This document shows positions 25,551 to 45,519 of a stretch of DNA of 64,000 nucleotides, one piece after another. The notes under the pieces are model-generated. The model made no database searches. It saw nothing but the letters and a program-made list of their open reading frames with translations, and was not told where the DNA came from. The stretch is taken from NCBI GenBank assembly GCA_018027755.1, contig GCA_018027755.1_4098.1; one strand, given 5' to 3'. The DNA comes from a phage. The translations under genes were made by a program, and so were the position numbers. Position 1 is the stretch's first letter. Each line of letters begins with the position of its first letter.

Positions 25551-26169
25551 ATTCCATTACCCCTTGAGGCTCCAGCAAAAAGTTGGTTAGTACTCCATCC
25601 TAAATCTCGATCCTAAAAATTTTGGAGTACCTATGAAATAAAAGTTGGATCTTCGAAAGTTGAAATTTACGTTGGGACGTTTATGATTTGTGGGATATAA
25701 TGATGTTTGTAGTCGGGTAGTTCTCAAGAATATCAGTACTGAATGATGAAAGAAAGCTATTGACTTTATGATTCAGTACTGTATAATGTTTTACATAGAG
25801 AGATGAGTTGCCGCAAACAATTCATTCACTCTACTTCCTGTCGTGAGACAGTACAGAAAGATAGTTCCTCCTATGGGTGGTACATCTTTTAGAACCTCTT
25901 TTTTCGTAATATGAACAGTACTGATATTAACAGAATGGTGTCAGTACTGATTTTAATTTAATGCATTATGCCACCAGCACAAGCTGGTGGATTCCCTCTA
26001 ACAGTATTCAGTACTACATGATGGTCTTCATCCTCCTAGGGTAACATAGTGAGGGCTATGATGGCAGTACTGAATACTCCCTTTCAAAAGATAGATCTAT
26101 GGTATAGTACTGACGGATTTTGGGCGTAGTTACCCTGGATGGATTTTGGGCGTAGATATGTCTAGCCCT

Positions 26170-26320
26170 CCAGAAGTCTGGAAGTAAAGATGGCTATCCA
26201 TCTAGACGGCTAAACGGCTAGATTTCTGGATGGCTGGATGGCTGGATGGCTGGATGGCTAGACGTTTGGACGGCTAAACGGCTAGATGGTTACACGTCTG
26301 GAAGTATAGACGGCTAAATC
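26170..26320. repeat. iteron-like tandem/symmetric repeat block
   Basis: CTGGATGG x4 in tandem (26226-26258) flanked by repeated GACGGCTAAACGGCTAGA and TCTGGAAGTA-AGA-GGCTA units. Confidence 0.6.
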
Positions 26321-26499
26321 AAAATTTTATTTTGTTTTTTCCAATAGTTCCCCTACCGCGTGGGGATAGTTTCCCCGCAGTATCTGGAGTTAGATTTTTC
26401 TGAATCTGGAATCATTATCTTATAAACTGGGGGCAATGTCAACGACCTGGTCGGATATTTTTAAAAATTTTTTCAGTACTGAATTTTGGGCGTAACTAT

Positions 26500-26514
26500 G
26501 CACCCGGTGGGCTT
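26500..26514 (+). repeat. motif-2 copy (GCACCCGGTGGGyT)
   Basis: Reverse complement of motif-1 core; preceded by GAATTTTGGGCGTAA. Confidence 0.5.
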
Positions 26515-26661
26515 GAGTCTTTCTCGACTTGATGGAACTATTATACAGTACTGAAAAAATAAAGCAATACCCTGGAAGCAAAAAAATTTTAATTAATTTG
26601 CTTGCTATCCTGGGCCGGACTATGGTACTATATTTCAGTACTGAGAAAGTGCGTTTGCCTG

Positions 26662-26681
26662 CTAGGGTGCGGGAGTGTATC
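26662..26681 (+). repeat. motif-1 copy (..AGGGTGCGGGAGTGTATC)
   Basis: Conserved 20-25-nt element, one of 7 copies. Confidence 0.5.
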
Positions 26682-26715
26682 CTTTTTTTATATCTTGAAT
26701 TTTGGGCGTAATTCC

Positions 26716-26730
26716 GCACCCCCTGGGGTT
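26716..26730 (+). repeat. motif-2 copy
   Basis: GCACCCCCTGGGGTT; about 50 nt downstream of motif-1 copy. Confidence 0.45.
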
Positions 26731-26936
26731 TCCGCTTTCTCGCGTCTATGTAGTAATTATACGCTTTTTCAGGATCAAGTCAATACCTAAAAACAAAATA
26801 ATTGAAAATAATTTAACGCGTTTAAACGGCCCGTAAAGCCCTGGAATGATTGGAATGGTGCAAATGTATAGCTTAGGTGTATTAATGCGTTAGAATGCGT
26901 CTGAGGCCGTTTTACGGGGTATAGGGATGATTTAGT

Positions 26937-27031
26937 GGATTGATTCAGTACTGAATAATAGTACTCCTATATAGAAAGATAGTTCCCCTGGATTGATTCA
27001 GTACTGAATAATAGTTCCCCTATATAGAAAG
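26937..27031 (+). repeat. about 42-bp direct repeat x2 containing palindrome TCAGTACTGA
   Basis: GGATTGATTCAGTACTGAATAATAGT.CC.TATATAGAAAG at 26937 and 26990, just upstream of first early promoter. Confidence 0.6.
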
Positions 27032-27063
27032 AAAACTATTTTAAAAGTATTTGTAGAAAGTAC

Positions 27064-27091
27064 TTGCACAGTACTGAAAAAAGCGTATAAT
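27064..27091 (+). promoter_or_regulatory. early promoter (TTGCAC-N16-TATAAT)
   Basis: -35 27064-27069, -10 27086-27091; followed by GTTTTACATC and GGGAA-CAC-TTCCC hairpin. Confidence 0.6.
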
Positions 27092-27145
27092 GTTTTACAT
27101 CGAGAGCGGGAACACTTCCCTACTCACTTTTAAGAGATTAAAACG

Positions 27146-27508
27146 ATGGCGACTCAAATCACTAAAATCATTGCTAACCTGGTTAACTTCCGCGACGATA
27201 TGAAAGATCTTCCGGCGGCAACGGTTAAAACTCACATTGACGCATACCGCGAACTGATTAAAATGCTGCCGCTTAAGCGTGAACAATACGCCGCCACCGT
27301 GATGCTTGATGCGATGATCCATAAGATGATCGCCAGTGATTTGACGATGGTTTATCAGTATATGGGCGAAAATTTCGCGGTGTATAGTAAACCAGTACCA
27401 GGAATGGAAAGTACAGAAGTATTACACGGTTTAAATTTAAAACAAGATGCATGGGATAATATGCCTCGTTTCCTGGTATGGGCTGACAGTGGCAAAATTT
27501 ACGAATAA
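27146..27508 (+). CDS. hypothetical protein (120 aa)
   Basis: ORF track; promoter + 5' hairpin upstream; E. coli-like codons. Confidence 0.65.
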   Translation: MATQITKIIANLVNFRDDMKDLPAATVKTHIDAYRELIKMLPLKREQYAATVMLDAMIHKMIASDLTMVYQYMGENFAVYSKPVPGMESTEVLHGLNLKQDAWDNMPRFLVWADSGKIYE

Positions 27509-27522
27509 GTTTTAGAAAGTAC

Positions 27523-27550
27523 TTGCAAACTAAGTTTAAAAGCGTATAAT
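27523..27550 (+). promoter_or_regulatory. early promoter (TTGCAA-N16-TATAAT)
   Basis: -35 27523-27528, -10 27545-27550. Confidence 0.6.
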
Positions 27551-27564
27551 GTTTTACATCAGGT

Positions 27565-27579
27565 GGGGAATAGTTCCCC
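27565..27579 (+). promoter_or_regulatory. 5'-proximal leader hairpin
   Basis: GGGGAA-TAG-TTCCCC immediately after predicted start site, before AGAGGA RBS. Confidence 0.5.
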
Positions 27580-27600
27580 ACTATATAAGAGGATTAAAAA

Positions 27601-27840
27601 ATGGCTAAATCAAAAATGTTCTTAGGTCACAAAAACAAAACTCATTGGAATGTAAGCCTTTGGATTAATAACGATGAGTCATTGTACCGGTTGGCCCTGG
27701 ACTTTATTGCCGCCAATACTAATCGCAATGATGCGGCCCGTCATATGATGTTATTTTTAGAACAGACTGGACAAGATAAAACACCGGACGGATTCAAATA
27801 TAGCACTACTGCGATCCGTGCGGCGATGGTTGGAATGTAA
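27601..27840 (+). CDS. hypothetical protein (79 aa), paralog of 29645..29884
   Basis: ORF track; shares GHKNKTHWNVSLWINNDESLYR and TPDGFKYSTTAIRAAMVGM with 29645..29884. Confidence 0.7.
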   Translation: MAKSKMFLGHKNKTHWNVSLWINNDESLYRLALDFIAANTNRNDAARHMMLFLEQTGQDKTPDGFKYSTTAIRAAMVGM

Positions 27841-27926
27841 TAGAATTTATTTAAAGTACTATCATTTTTTTGCGATAGTACTTTATAATAGTGTTTTATT
27901 CATACACCAACGATAAGGGCAACAGC

Positions 27927-28193
27927 ATGAATATTAAGTATTTTGCGACGCGTGAACAAGCTCGGATCGCCGCTCGCCAGGACGGGGCAACGTTTAAAGA
28001 TATGGGCGTACAATCGGAACGTGGTAAACGTTGGGCCATTGTAAAGCGTAGTACCGCCAGATCATTACAGTACTGGTTAGCGGCCTTAAAAAGTCCCGAT
28101 AGTGTATCGCGTCGAGTGGTAGAAATAAAGCTCGACCGAAAGGGCAACCGCGTGACCGTGTACCGTACTAAAAAGATTGCAGTACTTGAATAA
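27927..28193 (+). CDS. hypothetical protein (88 aa), paralog of 40612..41016
   Basis: Track ORF trimmed to ATG 27927; KYFATREQARIAAR and DRKGNRVTVY shared with 40612..41016. Confidence 0.6.
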   Translation: MNIKYFATREQARIAARQDGATFKDMGVQSERGKRWAIVKRSTARSLQYWLAALKSPDSVSRRVVEIKLDRKGNRVTVYRTKKIAVLE

Positions 28194-28200
28194 AAAGTAC

Positions 28201-28228
28201 TTGCAAACTATGTTTAATGGCGTATAAT
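28201..28228 (+). promoter_or_regulatory. early promoter (TTGCAA-N16-TATAAT)
   Basis: -35 28201-28206, -10 28223-28228. Confidence 0.6.
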
Positions 28229-28242
28229 GTTTTACATCGAGA

Positions 28243-28259
28243 GCGGGAACACTTCCCGC
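28243..28259 (+). promoter_or_regulatory. 5'-proximal leader hairpin
   Basis: GCGGGAA-CAC-TTCCCGC. Confidence 0.5.
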
Positions 28260-28281
28260 CTATAACCTGGAGTAATAAAAA

Positions 28282-28512
28282 ATGACTAATATGTATATGA
28301 CTGAAGTTAAAACCGTAAAAGATACTACCACGAATAAAACTACTTACTTACAGCGGATCTGCGGTGTATGGCAACGTATCAGCAAATCAAAGTACTTTAA
28401 ATTAACATCATATGCAAATCGTTCGGATTCATTCAGTACTGAAATAAAAGGTAATAAAGTACACCAATACGGCACTTATTATTATTACAGCCTGGACGCG
28501 ATTGCAGTATAA
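28282..28512 (+). CDS. hypothetical protein (76 aa)
   Basis: ORF track; GGAG RBS. Confidence 0.6.
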   Translation: MTNMYMTEVKTVKDTTTNKTTYLQRICGVWQRISKSKYFKLTSYANRSDSFSTEIKGNKVHQYGTYYYYSLDAIAV

Positions 28513-28545
28513 TCATATTTTTTGAAAAATTTACAATTGCCGGTA

Positions 28546-28574
28546 TTGACTTATTTTGTCAGTACTGGCATAAT
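28546..28574 (+). promoter_or_regulatory. promoter (TTGACT-N17-CATAAT) driving an ORF-less unit
   Basis: -35 28546-28551, -10 28569-28574; downstream about 150 nt carries motif-1 and motif-2 and ends in a T-run. Confidence 0.45.
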
Positions 28575-28597
28575 GTATTCATTGGCAGATAAGCCGT

Positions 28598-28622
28598 AGC
28601 CCATAGGGTGCGGGAGTGTATC
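28598..28622 (+). repeat. motif-1 copy
   Basis: AGCCCATAGGGTGCGGGAGTGTATC. Confidence 0.5.
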
Positions 28623-28666
28623 TATAGAAAAATTAGTTTAGTATAGTTACAATTGTGCACCCGGTG

Positions 28667-28680
28667 GGTTAGCTGTTGTC
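28667..28680 (+). repeat. motif-2 copy
   Basis: GCACCCGGTGGGTT. Confidence 0.5.
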
Positions 28681-28764
28681 ATGGGGTATATTATGCCAGT
28701 ACTTGATAATGCTGTCAATACTTTTTTTTAATATTCAGTACTGAAAACTATTTTTAAAAAGTAC

Positions 28765-28792
28765 TTGTAAACTATGTTTAAAGGCGTATAAT
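28765..28792 (+). promoter_or_regulatory. upstream promoter P1 (TTGTAA-N16-TATAAT)
   Basis: First of two tandem promoters before 28943. Confidence 0.5.
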
Positions 28793-28801
28793 GTTTTACA
28801 T

Positions 28802-28881
28802 CAGGACGGGGAACGAAATAAGTAACTTCCCGTTAAGTAGCCCAGGAGTAAGGCACACGAAAAACTCCCCTGATAAAATAG
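28802..28881 (+). ncRNA. candidate about 80-nt leader/small RNA element, copy 1
   Basis: CAGGACGGGGAACGAAATAAG...CTCCCCTGATAAAATAG between promoters P1 and P2; second copy at 39430..39508 before an unrelated gene. Confidence 0.35.
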
Positions 28882-28882
28882 T

Positions 28883-28910
28883 TTGACAATAGAAAGTAAA
28901 AGCGTATAAT
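28883..28910 (+). promoter_or_regulatory. promoter P2 (TTGACA-N16-TATAAT)
   Basis: -35 28883-28888, -10 28905-28910. Confidence 0.6.
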
Positions 28911-28942
28911 ACTTACATCAACTACTGAATGAGGGTTACAAA

Positions 28943-29554
28943 ATGAAAACTATCACTACTACTACTTTTGTTATGGCTTTTTCTGAACTGAACGCAGAAC
29001 AAAAAACGGCGGCTATCGAACTGGTTCGGGATCGTGAGCGTTCATGTGAGGATAATTTCTTTGCTGAGGGCGTTATCGAGTACTATAAAGAAACAGTACT
29101 ACCAGAATACGGCATAGATGAAGCTGAATTGCAATACAGTGGTTTTTGGTCGCAAGGTGACGGTGCATCAATCAGTACTAACCACGTTGACGCTGAGAAG
29201 TTTTTACGCAAGGTTAAGGCGTTAACGAAATATCGTTCAATCCGTCACCTGTTGAACGAGGATGATTTAGAAATGAGTGTAGAACGTTTCCAATCACGCT
29301 ACGCACACGAAAACACGGTAGGCGGTTGCGTTGATACTCGCTACACTGATTTAACTGTAAAACAGGCGGCATTGGCTGAGGATCTGGAAAACTTACTGAC
29401 TGATGCGATCCGTGAATTATCTCGTAAGTTGTACCGTGATTTAGAGAATGCATATGAGGATCAATTCACTACTGAAAACATCGTAGCACTGATTGAGGGT
29501 AACGAATATCAATTCAATGTGATTGATGGCGTAGTAGAATCAATCGAATATTAA
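28943..29554 (+). CDS. hypothetical protein (203 aa), acidic
   Basis: ORF track; GAGGG RBS; only a weak ISTNH motif reminiscent of ArdA, not called. Confidence 0.65.
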   Translation: MKTITTTTFVMAFSELNAEQKTAAIELVRDRERSCEDNFFAEGVIEYYKETVLPEYGIDEAELQYSGFWSQGDGASISTNHVDAEKFLRKVKALTKYRSIRHLLNEDDLEMSVERFQSRYAHENTVGGCVDTRYTDLTVKQAALAEDLENLLTDAIRELSRKLYRDLENAYEDQFTTENIVALIEGNEYQFNVIDGVVESIEY

Positions 29555-29566
29555 TTTAAAAAGTAC

Positions 29567-29594
29567 TTGCATACTAAGTTTAAAAGCGTATAAT
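29567..29594 (+). promoter_or_regulatory. early promoter (TTGCAT-N16-TATAAT)
   Basis: -35 29567-29572, -10 29589-29594. Confidence 0.6.
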
Positions 29595-29607
29595 ACTTTA
29601 TATCGAG

Positions 29608-29626
29608 GCGGGGAGTGGTTCCCCGC
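29608..29626 (+). promoter_or_regulatory. 5'-proximal leader hairpin
   Basis: GCGGGGA-GTGGT-TCCCCGC. Confidence 0.5.
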
Positions 29627-29644
29627 TCAAACGAGGATTTAAAA

Positions 29645-29884
29645 ATGGCTAGTACTAAAACTTATAACGGACACAAAAACAAAACTCATTGGAATGTAAG
29701 CCTTTGGATCAATAACGATGAATCATTATACCGGATTGCTCAAAATTGCATCGCACAAAGTAGAACTAAAGATATTGCTGCGGAATGTATGTACCGCAGA
29801 TTAAAAGCCAACGGTACTACTACAACGCCGGACGGCTTTAAGTATAGCACTACTGCGATCCGTGCTGCAATGGTTGGAATGTAA
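29645..29884 (+). CDS. hypothetical protein (79 aa), paralog of 27601..27840
   Basis: Track ORF trimmed to ATG 29645 after GAGGA RBS. Confidence 0.7.
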   Translation: MASTKTYNGHKNKTHWNVSLWINNDESLYRIAQNCIAQSRTKDIAAECMYRRLKANGTTTTPDGFKYSTTAIRAAMVGM

Positions 29885-29941
29885 TATTCAGTACTGAGAT
29901 AATGGCGGGTAATAGTTCCCGCCTTTACTGAGGGTTATCTA

Positions 29942-30202
29942 ATGAGTAAAGTAATTAGCTATACAGCACTAAGCAAGACATTATCTATTAGCCAGTGCAC
30001 CGATGGTTATTGGCTATTTGATGAAACGCGTGGCATGAATTTAGCCATGCGTGCAAAAACTGCTGAGGCGGCGTATCTTGAAGCATTGGAATACTACCAG
30101 GAACGTTTAAAGGAAGTAGAAGAAGATTATAAAAGCCTCAAAGCGAAAGTAGATCATTTCGTCGGTCAATTCATCGAGGAAGACGACGACAAACAATATT
30201 GA
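29942..30202 (+). CDS. hypothetical protein (86 aa)
   Basis: ORF track; GAGGG RBS; leader hairpin upstream. Confidence 0.6.
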   Translation: MSKVISYTALSKTLSISQCTDGYWLFDETRGMNLAMRAKTAEAAYLEALEYYQERLKEVEEDYKSLKAKVDHFVGQFIEEDDDKQY

Positions 30203-30210
30203 AAAAGTAC

Positions 30211-30238
30211 TTGCAATTAGTTTTCAGTACTGTATAAT
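30211..30238 (+). promoter_or_regulatory. early promoter (TTGCAA-N16-TATAAT, TG-extended)
   Basis: -35 30211-30216, -10 30233-30238. Confidence 0.6.
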
Positions 30239-30250
30239 GGTTTACATCAA

Positions 30251-30270
30251 AGGGAGAAATGGTTCTCCCT
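30251..30270 (+). promoter_or_regulatory. 5'-proximal leader hairpin
   Basis: AGGGAGAA-ATGG-TTCTCCCT. Confidence 0.5.
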
Positions 30271-30288
30271 GGTAATGAGGAAAATAAA

Positions 30289-30510
30289 ATGGCTAATATC
30301 ACTACTCTTTCCCAACTGGAAGCACTGGTGAAATCTATGCGGGAACATGCCGACAAAATCGGCGTACAAGATCCAGCCGTTTGCTTCTGCGACGAATTGA
30401 ATGATGATACCCTGGTAATAGCAGAAGTCCAGGACGTTTCTAACTATTCCTCGCGTTACACTGGCGGCGTAGCAAATAAAGGCGACTTCTGTTTATACCT
30501 TACAAAATAA
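30289..30510 (+). CDS. hypothetical protein (73 aa)
   Basis: Track ORF trimmed to ATG 30289 after GAGGAAAA. Confidence 0.6.
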   Translation: MANITTLSQLEALVKSMREHADKIGVQDPAVCFCDELNDDTLVIAEVQDVSNYSSRYTGGVANKGDFCLYLTK

Positions 30511-30586
30511 CAACGCGGGGAGATAATAACTCCCCGTTACTTTTTCAGTACTGAATCATTTAATAGACGGATCTCGGCACCCGGTG

Positions 30587-30600
30587 GGTTAGTGACTGTT
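30587..30600 (+). repeat. motif-2 copy
   Basis: GCACCCGGTGGGTT. Confidence 0.5.
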
Positions 30601-30678
30601 TCGTCTTGATGTAGTAATTATGCCAGTACTGGATGCACTTGTCAACAACTATTTTTCAAATACTTTTTATTAAAATAC

Positions 30679-30706
30679 TTGCAATTAGTTTTTAAACGCG
30701 TATAAT
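30679..30706 (+). promoter_or_regulatory. early promoter (TTGCAA-N16-TATAAT)
   Basis: -35 30679-30684, -10 30701-30706. Confidence 0.6.
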
Positions 30707-30716
30707 GTTTTGCATA

Positions 30717-30733
30717 GGGGGAGCGGTTCCCCC
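30717..30733 (+). promoter_or_regulatory. 5'-proximal leader hairpin
   Basis: GGGGGA-GCGGT-TCCCCC; identical leader reused at 31039. Confidence 0.5.
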
Positions 30734-30754
30734 TGGTAACTAAGGAATAATAAA

Positions 30755-30991
30755 ATGCTTGAACAAATCAAATCAACGACTTCGAATGTAACGGGAACGG
30801 TAGCACACTTTACTAGTGATGAATCGCGGGGCGTACCCTATTGTGCTGTACATGTAAACACTGATGGCAACTACTGGTTTACTGTTTACGGATCATATTC
30901 CTTTGGACGACCAGGGCATCAAAAAATTCTGGATAAAGTACAGCCAACGGGTAAAAATATCACTGCTGAAATGTTTTATAAAAAATCATAA
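30755..30991 (+). CDS. hypothetical protein (78 aa)
   Basis: ORF track; AAGGAA RBS. Confidence 0.6.
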   Translation: MLEQIKSTTSNVTGTVAHFTSDESRGVPYCAVHVNTDGNYWFTVYGSYSFGRPGHQKILDKVQPTGKNITAEMFYKKS

Positions 30992-30996
30992 AGTAC

Positions 30997-31024
30997 TTGA
31001 TAATAGTTTTTAGTACTGTATAAT
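30997..31024 (+). promoter_or_regulatory. early promoter (TTGATA-N16-TATAAT, TG-extended)
   Basis: -35 30997-31002, -10 31019-31024. Confidence 0.55.
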
Positions 31025-31038
31025 ATTTTACATCGCAA

Positions 31039-31055
31039 GGGGGAGCGGTTCCCCC
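31039..31055 (+). promoter_or_regulatory. 5'-proximal leader hairpin
   Basis: GGGGGA-GCGGT-TCCCCC. Confidence 0.5.
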
Positions 31056-31075
31056 TGGTAACTAAGGATAATCAA

Positions 31076-31375
31076 ATGAAAATTGCAATCATCGCCCTGG
31101 CTTTATCTGTTTCCTCTTTCGCTGTTAATGCGTCATTAGATGTAAGTAGTGAAAAATTCATTCAGTGCACTGTTGCAATGACCGATGAAAGTACTGGCGA
31201 GATTGTATTAAAGGATTTAGAGATCAAGCCGGAAGCATTTAAAAACGGCCCGTTCCATGAAGAAGACGAAAACGGTAGTACAACAATTTATTATGATGCC
31301 AGTACTAAACGCGGTTCGGTCACTGTAATGGATACTGAGAAAGTAACTCATACTGGCGTTATTAATTGCCGTTGA
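31076..31375 (+). CDS. small secreted/periplasmic protein (signal-peptide-like N-terminus)
   Basis: ORF track; MKIAIIALALSVSSFAVNAS.. hydrophobic leader. Confidence 0.6.
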   Translation: MKIAIIALALSVSSFAVNASLDVSSEKFIQCTVAMTDESTGEIVLKDLEIKPEAFKNGPFHEEDENGSTTIYYDASTKRGSVTVMDTEKVTHTGVINCR

Positions 31376-31396
31376 TAGATACTACGGGGTAACATC

Positions 31397-31627
31397 ATGA
31401 CTAAGCGAATTGTTTTACTTAACGAAAGCAGTACTACACAACTACTTAACGCCGTGCATTATGATATTGAAACGAGCGTTAATCTTATCAGTACTGTCGT
31501 ACTGTTGGACACTGGAAAGGTCGCCAATGATAAAGCGATTGCAGGTATACTAACGGATCTTGAGCCTGGTAGCAGTGCACCAATAACGTTAAATGGTAAA
31601 GTGTTTAATATTTTACTCACTGATTAA
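31397..31627 (+). CDS. hypothetical protein (76 aa)
   Basis: ORF track; terminator immediately downstream. Confidence 0.6.
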   Translation: MTKRIVLLNESSTTQLLNAVHYDIETSVNLISTVVLLDTGKVANDKAIAGILTDLEPGSSAPITLNGKVFNILLTD

Positions 31628-31633
31628 GTACAT

Positions 31634-31663
31634 AGCCCACCTGGTGGGCTTTTTTTGTTTTTG
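31634..31663 (+). terminator. intrinsic terminator
   Basis: AGCCCACC-TGGTGGGCT hairpin followed by TTTTTTTGTTTTT. Confidence 0.7.
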
Positions 31664-31861
31664 TAGTATCGTAGTACTGAGATACTTTGAAAATAGTTTT
31701 AAGAAAGTAGTTGACATTACCGCAGAAAAGCGTAGAATGTATTACATCAAGACGGGGAGCACTAAGTAGACCGCCAGTAAGTCGAACGAAAAACTGGACA
31801 CGTCGAGAAAACTTTGATACACTAACCAACGTAAACTAAACTTTAATTGAGGATTTATAAA

Positions 31862-38828: not shown

Positions 38829-38845
38829 TATAAGGAGTACAGCTT

Positions 38846-38938
38846 ATGCAAATGAATCCGATGATTATTGTTTTAGCTGTACTTATGATCATTCATGCAA
38901 TAGTAGAAGTATTAACGCAATCAGGAGTAATAAAATGA
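38846..38938 (+). CDS. hydrophobic micro-protein (30 aa)
   Basis: AAGGAG RBS; MQMNPMIIVLAVLMIIHAIVEVL.. Confidence 0.35.
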   Translation: MQMNPMIIVLAVLMIIHAIVEVLTQSGVIK

Positions 38939-39108: not shown

Positions 39109-39254
39109 AAGAATTCTTATTCGAAGTAGTGTTTCAAGGTGTCGGTAGTAACCAACTGATTCGCTCAAGTGGTTACAATGTTAACCAGGCATGGAATAAC
39201 ATTAAACAAATGTACCCGAACGCTATCACCTATCGCAACCCGAAACAAGTTTAA
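39105..39254 (+). CDS. hypothetical small protein (49 aa)
   Basis: ATGA overlap; followed by composite terminator/promoter element. Confidence 0.4.
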   Translation: MKEFLFEVVFQGVGSNQLIRSSGYNVNQAWNNIKQMYPNAITYRNPKQV

Positions 39255-39261
39255 AAATAAT

Positions 39262-39303
39262 TGAAAAAGGGATTGACACCGGTCAGTCCCTTTGCTATTA
39301 TAT
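39262..39303 (+). promoter_or_regulatory. composite element: A-run + hairpin overlapping TTGACA-N17-TATTAT promoter
   Basis: AGGGATTGAC-ACCG-GTCAGTCCCT; -35 39273-39278, -10 39296-39301. Confidence 0.5.
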
Positions 39304-39320
39304 ACGCATAGAAACAAATC

Positions 39321-39345
39321 AGCCCACAGGGTGCATAAATGTATC
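39321..39345 (+). repeat. motif-1 copy
   Basis: AGCCCACAGGGTGCATAAATGTATC, followed by a GCTGGTGG octamer. Confidence 0.5.
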
Positions 39346-39429
39346 TATTGTTTGCTGGTGGCTAGTACTGAAAACTATTTTTAAAAAAGTACTTGCATTG
39401 TACTTAGAATCAAGTATAATGTTTTACAT

Positions 39430-39508
39430 CAGGACGGGGAACGAAACAAGTAACCCCGTTAAGTAGTCCAGGAGTAAGACATACGAAAAACTCCCCTGAT
39501 AAAATAGT
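39430..39508 (+). ncRNA. candidate about 80-nt leader/small RNA element, copy 2
   Basis: Near-identical to 28802..28881, again between tandem promoters. Confidence 0.35.
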
Positions 39509-39569
39509 TTGACAATAGAAATTAAACGAGTATAATACTTACATCAACCACTGATAAGGAAACATAAAA

Positions 39570-39845
39570 ATGCGGATTCTACTGACAGCTAACGAAATCG
39601 AACAAGTACTGACTACTAACCTGGAAGACTGGAAACGTGAAGCAGATATCCAGGCGGTTCAATGGCTTAACGATAAGTTAACGCCGGATGACTTAAGCAA
39701 GATTGTAGATCCTCAATTCTACGAAGATATTCACGACACCGCGTTAAGCGTCGAGGATGTACTTGATAAGCACTACATTGATACTGATTTACATGTTTAC
39801 GGTCGTAAAAACTTTATCACTATTCACGACATTTACAATACTTAA
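39570..39845 (+). CDS. hypothetical protein (91 aa)
   Basis: ORF track; AAGGAAAC RBS. Confidence 0.6.
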   Translation: MRILLTANEIEQVLTTNLEDWKREADIQAVQWLNDKLTPDDLSKIVDPQFYEDIHDTALSVEDVLDKHYIDTDLHVYGRKNFITIHDIYNT

Positions 39846-39932
39846 GTATTGACAAAGTATCTTAGTACTGTATAATAGTTTACATCAAGGCGGGGAAATG
39901 GTTCCCCTCCTAACTAAAAGAGAGAAATTAAA

Positions 39933-40115
39933 ATGGCTAAGTGCACTATCTGTAAGAAAGAAATCGTATTAGTTCCAAGTGCCCGTGAACGTGCCGCTCG
40001 GTTCGGTGGCAAAGCGTCAGACTATACAAAAATGTTTACTGCCCATGCAGATTGCCAGGTAGCAAAACGTTCACAAGAAAGCGTAGAATTAATGCGTAAA
40101 CTTTCCAAAAAATAA
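39933..40115 (+). CDS. small Cys-containing protein (60 aa)
   Basis: ORF track; MAKCTICKK...HADC; promoter + leader hairpin. Confidence 0.55.
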   Translation: MAKCTICKKEIVLVPSARERAARFGGKASDYTKMFTAHADCQVAKRSQESVELMRKLSKK

Positions 40116-40201
40116 GTATTGACAAAGTATCTTAGTACTGTATAATAGTTTACATCAAGTGAGGGGAAACGGTTCCCCTCCTAACAGAGAGAGAAATAAA
40201 A

Positions 40202-40525
40202 ATGGCTATGATCCTTACCCAGAAAGTGGAATTGAAAATTGTAACCTCCTTTGACATTAAAGTTAATCGCTGGACTGATCGGAACGGCAATACTTACCAC
40301 TCTTGCTACGTGTCTGCATTGATTGGTGATCGTTGGGAAGACCTGGGACACGAAACTTTTACATACGGTTACGGTACGCAAGGCGAATACACGGGCTTGG
40401 AGATCATTAAAGAAACCGTTATAGGTTTCAACCCGAAAGAAAAAGTTATTCACCGCATCGAAAAAGAGATTAACAAAGAAATAACAGTTCGCTACTACGA
40501 TGTAAAACGTAAGAAAGACATGTAA
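40202..40525 (+). CDS. hypothetical protein (107 aa), paralog of 33677..34021
   Basis: ORF track; C-terminal DVKRKKDM. Confidence 0.65.
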   Translation: MAMILTQKVELKIVTSFDIKVNRWTDRNGNTYHSCYVSALIGDRWEDLGHETFTYGYGTQGEYTGLEIIKETVIGFNPKEKVIHRIEKEINKEITVRYYDVKRKKDM

Positions 40526-40611
40526 TAGAATCCATTTAAAGTACTATTTGACATTACACAGATAGTACTTTATAATAGACTCTAACTTGTAGTACTAACT
40601 CAACTAATAGG

Positions 40612-41016
40612 ATGTATACCATGATTACTAAATTCTACGCTACCCGTGAAGCTGCCCGTATTGTTGCACGCGAGGAAGGAGCAGCATTTAAAGACATGGG
40701 AACGACAGCACCGAAAGGTCAACGCTGGGCCGTACAGTTCAAAGAAATCTCTGATATTGTGAATTCACCTGAGCCAGTACTGACAGCAGCAGAACTAAAA
40801 CGAGCGGATATGCTGGCGGCAATACTTGACGCTCAAGATGAATTTATCGCTGATTCTGATATCAAAGTACAGGTAAACCACACCGCATGGACTCACGCGG
40901 ATCACCTGGCAAACCTTAAGCGTCCAAGTGAACTGATTCGCAACCAGAAAGAGATCCGACACGACCGTAAGGGTAATCGTGTAACAGTATACAGTAAACG
41001 CCGCCAGGTTATCTAA
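40612..41016 (+). CDS. hypothetical protein (134 aa), paralog of 27927..28193
   Basis: ORF track; shared N- and C-terminal blocks with extra central insert. Confidence 0.6.
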   Translation: MYTMITKFYATREAARIVAREEGAAFKDMGTTAPKGQRWAVQFKEISDIVNSPEPVLTAAELKRADMLAAILDAQDEFIADSDIKVQVNHTAWTHADHLANLKRPSELIRNQKEIRHDRKGNRVTVYSKRRQVI

Positions 41017-41038
41017 TAACTTGCAGTACTAACAACAC

Positions 41039-41064
41039 GGCGGGATCAGTTCCCGCCTTTTTTA
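41039..41064 (+). terminator. intrinsic terminator
   Basis: GGCGGGA-TCAGT-TCCCGCC hairpin followed by TTTTTTA. Confidence 0.65.
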
Positions 41065-41077
41065 TAGGACAAACAAA

Positions 41078-41332
41078 ATGATTAAGGTTCAACTATATAA
41101 AGATAACATCTTACGGGTACACTATAAAGCACCGAAGAGAATCATCACAAAGGCCGTACAGCTTGCTAATGAGTTTATTAATGGTAACCTATTACCAAGG
41201 AAGTTAAGCAACGGGAAACTGCGTGTAATCGACGTGGACACTAACAACAGGATAGTAATCGAGAACACAGGAAAAATAAACCTTTATGAACACCAACAAT
41301 ATAATAAGAAAATAAAACTAATATCACGTTGA
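41078..41332 (+). CDS. hypothetical protein (84 aa)
   Basis: ORF track. Confidence 0.55.
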   Translation: MIKVQLYKDNILRVHYKAPKRIITKAVQLANEFINGNLLPRKLSNGKLRVIDVDTNNRIVIENTGKINLYEHQQYNKKIKLISR

Positions 41333-41385
41333 CAGTACTCAAATGTTTTAGTACTATGTACACATACCAACACGGGAGAAACAAA

Positions 41386-41604
41386 ATGAAATTATCTAAA
41401 ATCGAAAAAACAACTATTGATGTAGCAGTTAAGCACGGTTATACCTTTCGTAATGATTCACATTTTACCAATTTTCAACAAGGACAGAGAACTATTAAAA
41501 AACTAATTGACAAAGGCTTATTAGTTAAAGTAGATAACGGTAACGGTGTGGAGTATCAACCAACACAGGACGCATTTTATTTTAAGAAATATAATATTAT
41601 CTAA
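41386..41604 (+). CDS. hypothetical protein (72 aa)
   Basis: Track ORF trimmed to ATG 41386; TTGACA-N17-TACTAT promoter at about 41334. Confidence 0.55.
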   Translation: MKLSKIEKTTIDVAVKHGYTFRNDSHFTNFQQGQRTIKKLIDKGLLVKVDNGNGVEYQPTQDAFYFKKYNII

Positions 41605-41662
41605 TTGACAGTACTCAAATGTTTTAGTACTATATGTACATACCAACACGGGGAAAAACAAA

Positions 41663-41905
41663 ATGATTACTTTAGAAAAACGTATCAAAGAAACTACATC
41701 GCTGGTGGAATTGTTAACAGTACTCAAATGTAAAACAACACCATTCAGCACGCCGGACTTTATTAATATGGTTGATGTTAATGGTCGCTATCGTATCACG
41801 GTCGAACAAGGAGCGGCGAAAGTATTCAGTACTAAAAACACTAAGGAAGTGATCCACGCCGTTAATGTTAAAAAAGTAGTTGCCATTGATAGTAAAGTAC
41901 TGTAA
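41663..41905 (+). CDS. hypothetical protein (80 aa)
   Basis: ORF track; upstream region duplicates that of 41386 gene. Confidence 0.55.
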   Translation: MITLEKRIKETTSLVELLTVLKCKTTPFSTPDFINMVDVNGRYRITVEQGAAKVFSTKNTKEVIHAVNVKKVVAIDSKVL

Positions 41906-41936
41906 GATAGTTTCATTAACTCAAGGAGTAAATGCA

Positions 41937-42521
41937 ATGCGTAATTATACTAAATTCATCCGTACACTGTCAGAAATGGAAACCAACAAAGAGATCCTTT
42001 CAGCTTGTCGGTTAGCTGGCCTGGAGATCATCGGTGCTGGTTCTTCCCGTATAGTATTCGCTTTAAATGATCGGTTAGTGATTAAGGTCGCGAATTGTGA
42101 TGCGGGTGTCGAACAAAATGAAACTGAATGTAAGGTATGGAATTTTTTAGACTATGACCGCCCTCAGTTGAAACAGTACTTTGCAAAGGTGCATATGCAT
42201 TTATGCGATCCTGATAATATGTTTATCGTTATGGATCGGTTGAGTACTGCAAGCAAAGGCAGTGTGAAGCACGTTAACGCGTGCAATGAATTAAAGTACA
42301 ATATTAAACGTAATGCAATCGAACGCCAGCACCGCTTTGCTGATGCACTACAACACGTTGATGATACATTATCAACACTAACGATAAGAGATATCAGAAA
42401 ACAGAATATCGGCCAGGATCGTAATGGCCTTATTAAAGTACTTGATTACGGTTTAACCCGCAATATCTGGAATCAGTACTATAAAAAGCGTGATGTGGCA
42501 GCAAGTAAGGTAACACGATAA
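41937..42521 (+). CDS. protein-kinase-like protein (194 aa)
   Basis: Track ORF trimmed to ATG 41937 after AAGGAG; IIGAGSSRIVF (Gly loop), VIKV, IRDIRKQN, KVLDYG resemble kinase motifs. Confidence 0.45.
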   Translation: MRNYTKFIRTLSEMETNKEILSACRLAGLEIIGAGSSRIVFALNDRLVIKVANCDAGVEQNETECKVWNFLDYDRPQLKQYFAKVHMHLCDPDNMFIVMDRLSTASKGSVKHVNACNELKYNIKRNAIERQHRFADALQHVDDTLSTLTIRDIRKQNIGQDRNGLIKVLDYGLTRNIWNQYYKKRDVAASKVTR

Positions 42522-42528
42522 AAAAGAT

Positions 42529-42570
42529 TAAAAAAGGGATTGACTCCGGTCAGTCCCTTTGCTATTATAT
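42529..42570 (+). promoter_or_regulatory. composite element: A-run + hairpin overlapping TTGACT-N17-TATTAT promoter
   Basis: -35 42540-42545, -10 42563-42568. Confidence 0.5.
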
Positions 42571-42592
42571 ATCCATTGAGAGATAACTCACT

Positions 42593-42617
42593 GACCCATA
42601 GGGTGCGGAAGTGTATC
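42593..42617 (+). repeat. motif-1 copy
   Basis: GACCCATAGGGTGCGGAAGTGTATC. Confidence 0.5.
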
Positions 42618-42742
42618 TATTATATAAGTATTCAGTACTGAAAACTATTTTTAAAAAAGTACTTGCATTGTACTTAGAATCAAGTATAATGTTTTATATC
42701 GAGAGGGGGAAATGGTTCTCCCTGGCAATAAGGAATAAAATC

Positions 42743-42964
42743 ATGACTACAATGACTTGCATTTACGCTTCCAATCGTCTGAATGATGCGGCCTTTAATG
42801 TTGATTCAGAATATCAATGTTATCGGGATGAAAATAAAAAAGTTTTTGTAGTTGATAATAATGGTTTCCATATTGAATTACAATCCGGCTTCACTGGTGT
42901 TGATGGTAAATCAGTATGGGGCGTACAGGATGATAAAGGTACATATCATTTTAAACGTAATTAA
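42743..42964 (+). CDS. hypothetical protein (73 aa)
   Basis: Track ORF 42611..42964 trimmed to ATG after promoter, leader hairpin and AAGGAA RBS. Confidence 0.55.
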   Translation: MTTMTCIYASNRLNDAAFNVDSEYQCYRDENKKVFVVDNNGFHIELQSGFTGVDGKSVWGVQDDKGTYHFKRN

Positions 42965-43048
42965 GTATTTGACAAAGTATCTTAGTACTGTATAATAGTT
43001 TACATCAAGGGGAGAATAGTTCTCCCCGATACTAAAAGGAATAAAATC

Positions 43049-43456
43049 ATGACTACTACCAATCAAGCTCGGAACATCACCAACGATAAAAATCATGCTG
43101 CAATGGTCGCTGGTTACATTGAAGCTATGCAATTCAGTACTGTACACAATGAGAACGGCGAATACCTGGAAGATTATGAATTATCAGAGCAAGCCCATCA
43201 AGCGGCAGTGATTGCATGTTCACGTTTCCTTGCTGTACATGGTGAAGATATGGAAACAGTACAAAAACACCATAATCCTGATTATACTTATAGTCATGCA
43301 GGTCATGATCTCTTTCTTACTCGCGAAGGTCACGGCACTGGTTTTTGGGATCGTGATATCGGTCACTATGATGATATATTCACTAAGTACTGCGAAGAAA
43401 TCAACGTTTGCGATCCCTATGTAGGCGATGATAATCTAATCTATATGGGCGAATAA
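43049..43456 (+). CDS. hypothetical protein (135 aa), His-rich
   Basis: ORF track; leader hairpin + AAGGAA RBS. Confidence 0.6.
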   Translation: MTTTNQARNITNDKNHAAMVAGYIEAMQFSTVHNENGEYLEDYELSEQAHQAAVIACSRFLAVHGEDMETVQKHHNPDYTYSHAGHDLFLTREGHGTGFWDRDIGHYDDIFTKYCEEINVCDPYVGDDNLIYMGE

Positions 43457-43544
43457 AAGTATTTGACAAAGTATATCAGTACTGTATAATAGTTTACATC
43501 AAGGGGAGAATAGTTCTCCCCCACCAATAAAAGGAAACAAAATT

Positions 43545-43817
43545 ATGTCCAGCTACTCCGCTACTATGATCATTAAAGATATGAACGGTAATCCTACTTC
43601 TGCTGGTGGATCATTTGGAAACATTAATTTAGATGGGCGGTTATCCATGCAATCAGCCATCGATACAGCGAAAGAAGTTTTTAAGAATGAATGTACTGTA
43701 AGCAAGCTGGATTATATGGGATTCGCTATCGAGAAAACTAATCGTTTTGTGAACTACAAAAATCCACTGATGATTGATACTAACCTGAAAGCTAACGAAG
43801 TGGAATACTTATTATGA
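43545..43817 (+). CDS. hypothetical protein (90 aa)
   Basis: ORF track. Confidence 0.6.
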   Translation: MSSYSATMIIKDMNGNPTSAGGSFGNINLDGRLSMQSAIDTAKEVFKNECTVSKLDYMGFAIEKTNRFVNYKNPLMIDTNLKANEVEYLL

Positions 43818-44005
43818 CAGTTGAAGAAGTTAAAAAAGTACTGGCAGTACTACGCTATCATAATCATTGCAAGGTGAAGAATGATCCTGATTATCTCGAT
43901 TCATCCCTGGAAGAGGATACACTACAAGCAATAAGCCATATGCAAAAAATGCTTAAGCGTATGACCGAAAAGAATAGACCGGACTATATCGGAAATAAAA
44001 TTTAA
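43814..44005 (+). CDS. hypothetical protein (63 aa)
   Basis: ORF track; ATGA overlap. Confidence 0.55.
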   Translation: MTVEEVKKVLAVLRYHNHCKVKNDPDYLDSSLEEDTLQAISHMQKMLKRMTEKNRPDYIGNKI

Positions 44006-44091
44006 AAAGTACTTGCATTGTAGTTAGATTAACGTATAATGTTTTATATCGAGAGGGGAAATGGTTTCCCCTCAAGTCCAGGAGATACACC

Positions 44092-44355
44092 ATGAACACT
44101 ATCGAAATCACTATCAATGCACACGTATACGACAACGTAGTACTGCAAACTACTATGACCGCTAATGATACCAGTACTTTGCGGAATACTGTTATTAGTG
44201 CCGTATGTGCTGCAATCGGTGATGTTGCCCTGGAAAATGCAGAACATATCAACAACGGTTTCACTATGTGCAAACGTGATAACGCAAAACATATCATCGT
44301 GGAAGGTTACGGCGGTGTAGAATTTAATGTTTATATGAAAAAAGTATTTGCATAA
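44092..44355 (+). CDS. hypothetical protein (87 aa)
   Basis: ORF track. Confidence 0.6.
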   Translation: MNTIEITINAHVYDNVVLQTTMTANDTSTLRNTVISAVCAAIGDVALENAEHINNGFTMCKRDNAKHIIVEGYGGVEFNVYMKKVFA

Positions 44356-44422
44356 TAACTAAAACAAAGTATAATGTTTTGCATAGGGGGAGATATCCTC
44401 CCCCACTAAAAGGAGTAATAAA

Positions 44423-44647
44423 ATGGCTAACTTTGATGAACTGATGCGGGAAGTAGCTACCCTGGCAGAAGAGAAGAAATCATTCGATTCTATCTATAAC
44501 ACCTCTTACCGTGATTCAGTACTGGCATGTACTCAGGATCAAAAAGATGAACTAATCGCCACATATCATGAAGCATGGAAGTACTACCGCCAATGGGAGA
44601 AAGAAGAAAGCGAGTCTACCATCAACGGCATCAATAATCTAATCTAA
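44423..44647 (+). CDS. hypothetical protein (74 aa)
   Basis: ORF track. Confidence 0.6.
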   Translation: MANFDELMREVATLAEEKKSFDSIYNTSYRDSVLACTQDQKDELIATYHEAWKYYRQWEKEESESTINGINNLI

Positions 44648-44723
44648 AAGTTTTATTTCAGTACTATTGACATAGCTTGATAGTACTGATGTAATAACTT
44701 TACTAACTACAAGGGGAAACATA

Positions 44724-44981
44724 ATGGAACAGTTCACACAATATCGGGTAAATCCTCAAGCTATGGCCTACGTAGAAGACCATAAAACGTTACCAGTACT
44801 GCAACCAGTTAAAGGCCATATCTATCGTGCAATGTCGTGGAGTACGGCCCAGGATGGCTATAAAACCGTAGCTGTCGGTATGTACTGCGGTAATGGTGAA
44901 TGGTTTGATCCAAATAATCCGGTCGCCGTTGACAGTACTGAAAAAATGAAATGGGCCGACTACATCGAAGATATTTCATAA
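44724..44981 (+). CDS. hypothetical protein (85 aa)
   Basis: ORF track. Confidence 0.6.
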   Translation: MEQFTQYRVNPQAMAYVEDHKTLPVLQPVKGHIYRAMSWSTAQDGYKTVAVGMYCGNGEWFDPNNPVAVDSTEKMKWADYIEDIS

Positions 44982-45071
44982 AAACTATTTGACAGTACTA
45001 ACCAGTAATGTATAATGTTTTACATAGAGCGGGGGAATAGTTCTCCCGCCAATAGTTTGGAGTAAAACATT

Positions 45072-45272
45072 ATGTCTATCGCTATCGCCCTGGTTGAAGT
45101 ACTGAAAGAAGCTAAAGCCAACCTTATCGATGTACAGATTAAGGAATTGCAAAACGGCTTAATCGGCTGCACTTGTACCGCTGGCGGTGCGGCAGACTAT
45201 CGAGAACACGAATCACTCGAATCACTGGTTCGGTATCTTACCATGATCGTTGATGATTGGAGAATCATCTAA
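45072..45272 (+). CDS. hypothetical protein (66 aa)
   Basis: ORF track. Confidence 0.55.
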   Translation: MSIAIALVEVLKEAKANLIDVQIKELQNGLIGCTCTAGGAADYREHESLESLVRYLTMIVDDWRII

Positions 45273-45285
45273 CAAAAAAAGAATA

Positions 45286-45327
45286 AAAAAAGGGATTGAC
45301 TCCGGTCAGTCCCTTTGCTATTATATA
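45286..45327 (+). promoter_or_regulatory. composite element: A-run + hairpin overlapping TTGACT-N17-TATTAT promoter
   Basis: -35 45297-45302, -10 45320-45325. Confidence 0.5.
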
Positions 45328-45343
45328 CGCATAGACAAAAACT

Positions 45344-45368
45344 AGCCCACAGGGTGCATAAGTGTATC
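45344..45368 (+). repeat. motif-1 copy
   Basis: AGCCCACAGGGTGCATAAGTGTATC, followed by a GCTGGTGG octamer. Confidence 0.5.
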
Positions 45369-45519
45369 CAAAATATATAGTTAATAACGGTGAGTAACTA
45401 TCTGCTGGTGGAGTGAAAACTATTAATAAAAAAAGTATTGACAAAGTATATCAGTACTGCGATAATGTATCTCGTAGGGCGGCAATGGTGCGACGGCCCA
45501 CAAAGTTAGGAGATTCAAA

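Follow-up and report, generated by a model that had tools for sequence, protein, structure and literature searches.

Why should a single octamer, the Chi sequence GCTGGTGG of Escherichia coli, be crowded into one part of a phage genome? The question is raised by a stretch of 64,000 nucleotides of phage DNA (GenBank assembly GCA_018027755.1, contig GCA_018027755.1_4098.1), which is called the window below and to which all coordinates refer unless another genome is named. A preliminary description, made from the letters alone, had drawn attention to eight co-oriented copies of this octamer, and had read them as protection against RecBCD entering from the right, as the mark of an E. coli-like host, and as the sign of an exposed DNA end nearby. 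The analysis reported here places the octamers in a long direct terminal repeat (DTR) of a jumbo phage and suggests that they are functional Chi sites, accumulated by selection specifically in this repeat, a reading to which we give a probability of about 0.6.

Chi octamers in the window

The two strands of the window hold 13 copies of GCTGGTGG. Dinucleotide-preserving shuffles predict 0.56, in agreement with the earlier estimate of less than one copy by chance, and none of 100 shuffles gave more than 4. The eight plus-strand positions listed at the outset (25983, 32474, 36976, 37486, 38436, 39354, 43602 and 45404) are all exact, while a further plus-strand copy at 41701 and the minus-strand copies at 12860, 13118, 25971 and 32412 had been overlooked. 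Eleven of the 13 lie inside the DTR, nine on the plus strand and two on the minus strand, and they span 25971 to 45411; from 46774 to 64000 there is no Chi on either strand. Co-orientation is thus a matter of degree: the cluster is mostly on the plus strand, at 9:2, and not entirely so.

How far is this from chance? Between 25900 and 47000, the plus strand has nine Chi where 0.38 are expected under an order-4 Markov model (p=3e-10), the expectation being 0.1-0.4 over strand-specific models of orders 0-4. In the same interval, GCTGGTGG is the most over-represented octamer, ahead of the words belonging to promoter -10 elements. The copies at 12860 and 13118, the only two outside the DTR, are found in Gly-rich coding sequence of minus-strand genes; an order-4 local model expects 1.96 copies where 2 are observed, and both are explained by local composition, namely the Gly-rich repeats of RCC1-like paralogues.

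The terminal repeat and the ends of the genome

To which phage does the window belong, and where does its DNA end? With an identity of 94-96% to E. coli jumbo phages of the genus Asteriusvirus (121Q, PBECO4, G17, vB_Ec-M-J and fEgEco12), it can be assigned by homology to an Asteriusvirus, that is, a 121Q/PBECO4-like E. coli jumbo phage with a genome of ~350 kb. All of the closest relatives were isolated on E. coli, a species that uses GCTGGTGG as Chi, and the E. coli-like host proposed earlier is supported by them.

The same relatives locate the ends. The window holds one collapsed copy of the repeat only, and the boundaries were placed by homology: position 1 of vB_Ec-M-J and position 1 of fEgEco12 both align to 25395, and the inner ends of their DTRs (21525 and 20993, respectively) both align to 46773. 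Because two independently terminus-mapped genomes agree, the DTR of the window is set at 25395..46773 on the plus strand, with a length of 21.4 kb, and because the boundaries of the relatives fall on these two positions, the assembly appears to have the two repeat copies collapsed into one. In the complete genome of vB_Ec-M-J (378,573 bp), the DTR is annotated at 21,525 bp and its two copies are identical. The DTR of fEgEco12, 20,993 bp long, was mapped with PhageTerm and its termini were confirmed by restriction digests (PMC13070987), and that of Sharanji measures 20,668 bp (PMC11895373). On this basis, 25395 would be the left physical end of the packaged DNA and 46773 the right one, with the DTR sitting at both genome ends in the virion; the DNA to the left of 25395 would be the unique sequence preceding the right repeat, and that to the right of 46773 the unique sequence following the left repeat. 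The exposed end that had been predicted nearby finds its counterpart here, with the Chi cluster filling the DTR between the two agreed boundaries.

The DTR is a T5-like early region. Its small early genes number about 55, lie without exception on the plus strand and are preceded by many consensus sigma-70 promoters. Eleven perfect 12/12 promoters (TTGACA-16/17-TATAAT) occur between 30000 and 47000, all on the plus strand and about one per small gene, and a scan of this interval returned 99 promoter-like sites against 57.5 in shuffles. In a PHROGs scan, the ten largest DTR proteins matched families of unknown function except for an acetyltransferase and a weak ligase-like match; no recognisable RecBCD inhibitor or end protector was found among these ten, a result of little weight either way, since such inhibitors are small and diverse.

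Enrichment in the repeat and specificity for the octamer

Does the cluster belong to the repeat, or to the genome as a whole? The whole-genome count suggested in the preliminary description was run on vB_Ec-M-J. Each copy of its 21.5-kb DTR has 9 Chi on the plus strand and 2 on the minus strand (order-4 expectation 0.38 and 0.08), and the unique region of 335.5 kb has 14 and 9 (expectation 5.8 and 6.3), which is an enrichment of at most ~2-fold. The DTR is strongly enriched: its Chi density exceeds that of the unique region 7.5 times when the two strands are taken together, and 10 times when the plus strand is counted by itself (binomial p about 3e-6). In the window, the density reaches 0.51 per kb (11 Chi in 21.4 kb of DTR).

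One explanation of such a cluster is that it has no function, and is a by-product of composition, of codon usage (GCT-GGT-GG encodes Ala-Gly-Gly), of G-rich terminator stems, or of an amplified repeat. Several details could be quoted in this sense: of the DTR Chi of the window, three are coding and two of these use the Ala-Gly-Gly frame; at 36976, 5 of the 8 bases come from a terminator stem of the AGCCCAC...GTGGGCT type; the DTR is somewhat GC-richer than the rest of the genome (0.386 against 0.354); and the two copies outside it are, as said, fully accounted for by Gly-rich coding. However, Markov models up to order 4 predict 0.4 plus-strand and 0.08 minus-strand copies where 9 and 2 are observed. 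The specificity for the exact sequence also argues against it. When the DTRs of five lineages are pooled, exact Chi is present 42 times on the plus strand against 2.25 expected (18.7-fold) and 9 times on the minus strand against 0.46 (19.5-fold), whereas all 24 one-mismatch variants, neighbours of the same composition, stay near expectation on the plus strand (0-2.3-fold).

Codon usage can be excluded as the origin because the sites prefer intergenic DNA: in the DTR of vB_Ec-M-J, 7 of 11 Chi are intergenic while intergenic DNA makes up 35% of the sequence, and in that of the Klebsiella phage fENko-Kae01 the figures are 8 of 14 and 26%. The three coding sites in the DTR of the window occupy two different reading frames. 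An artefact of composition or codons is thus ruled out by Markov orders 0-6, by the one-mismatch control and by the intergenic excess.

Nor are the sites carried along by a larger repeat. The preliminary description had placed the copies at 39354 and 45404 just after copies of a "motif-1", and they do lie 61 and 88 nt downstream of copies of a repeated intergenic element of ~150 bp. Yet Chi is present in only two of the four copies of this element, at unequal offsets, and its being a part of motif-1 is ruled out on this account; the flanks of the 13 Chi of the window have no visible shared consensus. Given also that the pattern repeats at non-homologous sites in six lineages, a functionless origin is very hard to credit.

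Is the octamer maintained over time? Six Asteriusviruses were compared, with DTR identities of 89-96%. Out of 64 pairings of a site with a relative, the Chi octamer is intact in 57, while other octamers of the DTR are preserved in 71-74% of cases (p about 0.02). Turnover can be seen as well: the site at 37486 is degenerate or absent in four relatives, and one at 45180 has decayed in the window. Together with its specificity and location, this speaks for selection on the exact octamer in the DTR.

Orientation and position relative to the ends

Which way do the sites face? RecBCD recognises Chi on the 3'-ended strand, approaching from the 3' side of the octamer. For this reason, plus-strand Chi are expected to be active for enzymes entering at the right end (46773), and minus-strand Chi for those entering at the left end (25395). 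Of the eleven sites, the nine on the plus strand face the right end, with the nearest at 1,362 bp, and the two on the minus strand face the left end, with the nearest at 577 bp. The entry from the right of the window that had been proposed needs to be amended accordingly: the plus-strand Chi are rightly oriented for a right genome end, but this end lies inside the window, at 46773, and it is not the only one, as the end at 25395 is faced by the minus-strand Chi at 25971 and 32412.

The 9:2 bias itself calls for no special explanation. The ratio of observed to expected Chi is about 19-fold on both strands, with a compositional expectation of 0.40 for the plus strand and 0.09 for the minus strand; the bias matches the G-richness of the coding strand and need not mean selection for one direction. 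Position carries a signal of its own. In all six lineages, plus-strand Chi are skewed to the right end (pooled mean relative position 0.61, p=0.003) and minus-strand Chi to the left end (0.32, p=0.015), and the positions of the two classes differ (Mann-Whitney p=0.001). The nearest Chi lies 0.4-1.4 kb from the right end in every lineage, and 0.2-0.6 kb from the left end in three of the six.

If a single Chi is taken to be recognised by RecBCD with a probability of 30-40%, nine sites are calculated to stop 96-99% of the enzymes, and two sites 51-64%.

Recurrence across the jumbo-phage clade

Is the cluster a peculiarity of Asteriusvirus? In distant members of the clade the DTRs do not align with that of the window, yet Chi are clustered in them at non-homologous positions. 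Among Klebsiella phages, fENko-Kae01 has 12 plus-strand and 2 minus-strand Chi in a DTR of 19.7 kb (1 and 1 in the adjacent 30 kb), and Muenster has 7 and 1 in 20.0 kb (0 and 0 in the adjacent 25 kb). The Pectobacterium phage CBB has 7 and 2 in 22.5 kb (2 and 1 in the adjacent 27.5 kb). Of two phages isolated on Xanthomonas vesicatoria, XbC2 has 7 and 2 in a DTR of 17.6 kb (1-17581; 1 and 2 in the adjacent 27 kb) and XaC1 has 9 and 3 in one of 32.0 kb (1-32031; 0 and 0 in the adjacent 18 kb). In the Yersinia phage fHe-Yen9-04, the early small-gene region of 13.5 kb (1-13500), bounded by gene layout and not by a mapped DTR, has 6 and 0, and the next 26.5 kb have 2 and 1. Even the finer architecture can recur: 484 bp from its left end, fENko-Kae01 carries the back-to-back Chi CCACCAGC-TTAA-GCTGGTGG, built in the same way as a palindrome near the left end of the window repeat (25971..25990).

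XbC2 failed as a negative host control: its Chi cluster is present, and the phage is >50% similar to enterobacterial Mimasviruses, with several homologous sites. The more distant XaC1, located through a DUF932 anchor protein, and fHe-Yen9-04 failed as further controls, both having the Chi cluster, so that there is no clean negative host control in this set. An enumeration of the clade by tblastn with the capsid protein was too broad, with T4-like capsids also matching, and was uninformative.

What reads the octamer?

How would such sites serve the phage? From the pattern as a whole, we infer that RecBCD is the reader, and that the benefit combines protection of the ends with recombination of repeat by repeat. 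In the cell, the two ends of the linear genome would be the sole entry points for host RecBCD. An enzyme starting at the right end (46773) would move leftward through the right repeat and could pass as many as nine plus-strand Chi in the correct orientation, beginning 1.4 kb from the end, while for one starting at the left end (25395) there would be minus-strand Chi at 0.6 kb and 7 kb. On reaching a Chi, RecBCD would cease to degrade the 3'-ended strand and would load RecA onto the 3' tail. Because the sequence at Chi recurs at the other genome end, the RecA filament could invade the other repeat. Invasion within the same molecule would yield a circle with one DTR, and invasion of a sister molecule a head-to-tail concatemer. 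The invading end might also prime replication, and the nuclease would never reach the unique genome. The confinement of Chi to the repeat would make sense in these terms, because the switch must precede the loss of unique DNA and must occur where a homologous partner exists. This mechanism is proposed by analogy, as a transfer of the model for phage P1 to a virulent phage with exact DTRs. Protection from degradation, the role originally assigned to the octamers, would be part of it but only half, since their location in a repeat points with at least equal force to Chi-stimulated recombination between the repeats.

A variant of this idea keeps RecBCD as the reader and changes the main benefit, which would be the evasion of CRISPR adaptation: the products of RecBCD degradation at free phage ends supply Cas1-Cas2 with spacers, and Chi near the ends would shorten the phage DNA that is open to this capture. 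Naive CRISPR adaptation in E. coli is RecBCD-dependent and bounded by Chi, and injected phage ends are hotspots for spacers. The anatomy is the same in both cases, including the terminal Chi at the distances given above, and the data do not separate such a benefit from end protection. For evasion, however, one or two terminal Chi would be enough, and their spread over the whole 21-kb repeat and their stop at its inner boundary would go unexplained, while both fit the need for homology-dependent recombination. CRISPR-Cas is, in addition, silent in many E. coli strains. As the main benefit, the evasion of adaptation seems to us quite improbable.

Several points weigh against the explanation that we favour. 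The same cluster is present in phages of Xanthomonas and Yersinia, hosts for which no use of GCTGGTGG is known: a survey from which Xanthomonas is absent detected no polarised Chi in Yersinia (bioRxiv 2020.08.13.249359), a literature search found no paper characterising a Xanthomonas Chi, and in Pseudomonas the Chi differs, being GCTGGCGC (PMC5959072). Then, the phage probably has means of its own. vB_Ec-M-J, 96% identical, is annotated with a UvsX-like recombinase, a UvsY mediator, SbcC/SbcD-like nuclease subunits and endonuclease VII, and with such recombinases present the phage breaks a published rule, according to which recombination modules are missing from Chi-rich phages (PMC3784561, PMC12315714); a reconciliation by timing is plausible, in that the ends are exposed before any phage protein exists. 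T5, the classic coliphage with a long DTR, has no comparable cluster (2 in the DTR and 6 in 100 kb), from which it follows that a long DTR does not in itself call for Chi. The left end, presumably the first to enter the cell since the early genes read from left to right, is faced by only two Chi. Orientation alone is no evidence either, because the 9:2 bias equals the ratio of the compositional expectations (0.40 to 0.09). Finally, in our literature searches no paper turned up that connects Asteriusvirus or its relatives with Chi or RecBCD.

The first of these points leads to another explanation, in which the octamer is read by a factor other than RecBCD, such as a phage DNA-binding, packaging, injection-pause or replication factor that marks the repeat, its identity with Chi being coincidental or secondary. 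The cluster runs through the whole clade independently of the recorded host, including a Yersinia phage and two Xanthomonas phages only about 21% similar to each other, and its confinement to the DTR would equally fit a repeat-specific phage signal. Against this stands the improbability of an exact match, by coincidence, to one host octamer of 65,536, and the best-sampled hosts are Enterobacterales, which use that very octamer. The sites hold no fixed position relative to promoters, terminators or genes, being found in coding DNA (two frames), promoter spacers, hairpin arms and plain spacers, and their contexts have no visible extended flanking consensus. The presence of both orientations with polarity directed to the ends is the signature of a translocase that enters from an end, not of a site-specific binder, and the similarity of XbC2 to enterobacterial Mimasviruses, homologous Chi sites included, tempers the argument from its host. 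A reader other than RecBCD is in our judgment unlikely.

RecBCD remains the reader that we prefer, and a broader proposal can be built on it for the whole clade (Asteriusvirus, Alcyoneusvirus, Mimasvirus, Eneladusvirus and relatives). Its ~20-kb repeats might be a dedicated landing pad for RecBCD, on which Chi arrays facing the ends recruit the double-strand-break repair of the host for the first circularisation, or for the first round of recombination-primed replication, before the phage recombinase is made. We consider this extension possible, if doubtful. Were it true, the octamer in Xanthomonas and Yersinia phages would mean either that Chi recognition extends far beyond enterics or that the clade has an octamer reader of its own.

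Comparison with known systems

Do other phages offer a precedent? The closest known system is P1, together with P7 and D6, in which Chi at ~0.5 per kb are found on both strands and concentrated at the packaged ends and the terminal redundancy, as in the DTR of the window. P1 has 50 Chi in 94.8 kb, or 0.53 per kb, and a published proposal has RecBCD-dependent circularisation driven by their clustering at the terminally redundant ends (bioRxiv 2021.07.08.451572); for the E. coli chromosome, the density is about 1 per 5 kb, ~0.2 per kb (bioRxiv 2020.08.13.249359). The DTR thus exceeds E. coli more than twofold and equals P1, and in density and location it is a terminal cluster of the P1 type. Its octamers agree with Chi in exact sequence, orientation and position, and their activity is predicted.

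In P1, recombination through RecBCD, Chi and RecA between the terminal repeats has been proposed to circularise the injected DNA, and we propose the same role here. The two phages differ in much else. P1 is temperate and 95 kb long, with pac/headful packaging, ends that vary over 20-40 kb, and Cre-lox as an alternative, whereas the window phage is a virulent jumbo phage of ~350 kb with fixed, exact 21-kb repeats; unlike in P1, its Chi cluster ends at the repeat boundary and UvsX/UvsY are encoded by the phage itself. RecBCD dependence has been demonstrated for P1, whereas the part played by RecBCD in the window phage is deduced from sequence.

Looser relatives are the Chi-rich lambdoid phages and the Chi+ lambda red gam paradigm. 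In Chi-rich phages, the host Chi is enriched so that RecBCD promotes recombination for packageable or replicating concatemers (PMC12315714, PMC3784561), as proposed for the window phage. Their Chi are spread over the genome or toward ori/cos and they have no recombinase of their own, whereas the Chi of the window phage are confined to the repeat and recombinases are present; judged by the latter, it would fall outside the class with no Rec module and high Chi (Bobay 2013; Genome Res 2025).

T5 shares the architecture, that is, a long exact DTR with pre-early or early genes behind host-type promoters, which is first into the cell in T5 and presumably in the window phage, and the PhageTerm class of the relatives is "long DTR, T5 type" (PMC11273794). 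T5-like phages have been reported as over-represented in Chi (PMC3784561). In T5 itself, the 10.2-kb DTR holds 2 Chi and the first 100 kb hold 6; unlike in the window phage, no array fills the repeat. As an aside, six GCTGGTGG in the first 100 kb of T5, or ~1 per 17 kb, looks below the statement in a review preprint that its density is near or above that of E. coli (bioRxiv 2021.07.08.451572).

The chromosomal Chi of E. coli are the identical octamer, over-represented and biased to the G-rich strand, as in the DTR. They are mostly coding, distributed genome-wide and polarised with replication, whereas the DTR Chi are mostly intergenic, lie in a repeat of 38% GC and are polarised to physical ends.

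The principle has precedent, and the finding is statistically robust and clade-wide. In full-text literature searches we found no paper mentioning Chi in the DTRs of Asteriusvirus, Rak2-like, CBB-like or related jumbo phages, and the genome papers of fEgEco12 (PMC13070987) and Sharanji (PMC11895373) discuss the DTR without mentioning Chi. Why should this matter? It offers a testable account of how a linear phage genome of 350 kb survives the main exonuclease of its host and begins replication, with host mutants (recB, recC tunnel alleles, recD and recA) predicted to alter infection. The use of Chi by phages would be extended beyond temperate P1 and the lambdoid phages to jumbo phages that are virulent, beyond phages lacking a recombinase to phages that bear one, and beyond genome-wide enrichment to an array that coincides exactly with a terminal repeat. 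A sharp step in Chi density can also mark DTR boundaries in collapsed assemblies, which is of practical use because the termini are usually unknown and these phages are under development for therapy. Lastly, the octamer in Xanthomonas and Yersinia phages is a route to learning which non-enteric bacteria recognise the E. coli type of Chi.

Individual Chi sites

Followed from left to right, the repeat begins with the back-to-back palindrome CCACCAGC-ACAA-GCTGGTGG at 25971..25990, which is made of a minus-strand Chi (25971-25978) and a plus-strand Chi (25983-25990). It stands 577 bp from the left genome end, in a leader free of open reading frames (ORFs), forms a perfect 8-bp hairpin (dG -9.9 kcal/mol) and is intact in most relatives. 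The leader, 25395-27145, is the first ~1.7 kb of the DTR and has no credible ORF in the window; the annotated relatives examined have a similar leader of 1.1-1.8 kb, with a tiny ORF at most. It contains many copies of the palindrome AGTACT besides that of Chi, and the GC skew of the window switches sign at ~25-26 kb. This leader may host a packaging/terminase site or an origin.

The next two sites, both intergenic, form a close pair. The minus-strand Chi at 32412..32419, 7.0 kb from the left end, is predicted to be in the active orientation for RecBCD entering there and is kept in 4 of 6 relatives; 55 bp to its right is the plus-strand Chi at 32474..32481, intact in 6 of 6. All sites that follow are on the plus strand. 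The intergenic Chi at 36976..36983, intact in 6 of 6 relatives, does sit in a hairpin as described earlier: it is the 3' arm of the terminator-like structure AGCCCACTGG-TTAAC-GCTGGTGGGCT (dG -9.1 kcal/mol, z -3.6). The 20-nt core of a terminator-like hairpin with Chi in its 3' arm, CCACTGGTTAACGCTGGTGG, is identical at 36964-36983 of the window and at 19342-19361 of fENko-Kae01, phages that are only ~29% identical genome-wide, and its position in the DTR is different in each.

The least stable site, 37486..37493, is intergenic or in a doubtful TTG ORF of 48 amino acids; vB_Ec-M-J has GCTGATGG in its place and 121Q has GCTGGGGA, while G17 and SP27 do not align there. Four sites intact in 6 of 6 relatives come after it: 38436..38443, in an ORF of 64 amino acids (frame Ala-Gly-Gly); 39354..39361, intergenic and within one copy of the 150-bp element; 41701..41708, in an ORF of 80 amino acids (frame Leu-Val); and 43602..43609, in an ORF of 90 amino acids (frame Ala-Gly-Gly). 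At 45180..45187 the window has GCTGGCGG, a Chi decayed by one base, where the aligned homologous site of vB_Ec-M-J is an intact GCTGGTGG; G17, fEgEco12, CMSTMSU and SP27 each have an intact Chi ~220 bp upstream of the last one, an offset that matches 45180. The last site, 45404..45411, is intergenic, 1362 bp from the right end and intact in 5 of 5 aligned relatives, and it would be the first Chi encountered by RecBCD coming from that end.

Other features of the window

What else surrounds these sites? Directly upstream of the right DTR copy, at ~1-21000 on the minus strand, paralogous genes of ~1.1 kb stand in an array; in relatives they carry the annotation RCC1-like "regulator of chromosome condensation".

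The repeated intergenic element of ~150 bp has its four copies at 35588, 39266, 42533 and 45289. In the copy at 39266, Chi takes the place of an AT-rich sequence present in the other copies. The element has a hairpin with a 12-bp stem, AAAGGGATTGACnCCGGTCAGTCCCTTT, whose 5' arm holds a -35-like TTGAC, followed by the -10-like GCTATTATAT and then by AGCCCACAGGGTGCATAAGTGTATC. Such an arrangement suggests a promoter folded into the hairpin, which may act as a regulatory switch or be transcribed as a structured RNA.

A second word is also hugely over-represented across the window (1-64000) and densest in the DTR. This is the palindrome AGTACT, often as CAGTACTG, which is found 139 times in the DTR (6.5 per kb), 108 times in the 25 kb to the left and 33 times in the 17 kb to the right; the window has 63 copies of CAGTACTG against 24 expected. 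AGTACT lies directly upstream of early promoters or within them (AAAAAGTACTTGACA). In Muenster (61 copies) and XbC2 (28 copies) it also ranks at the top for the DTR, and by its sequence distribution it appears to be a clade-wide motif of the early region.

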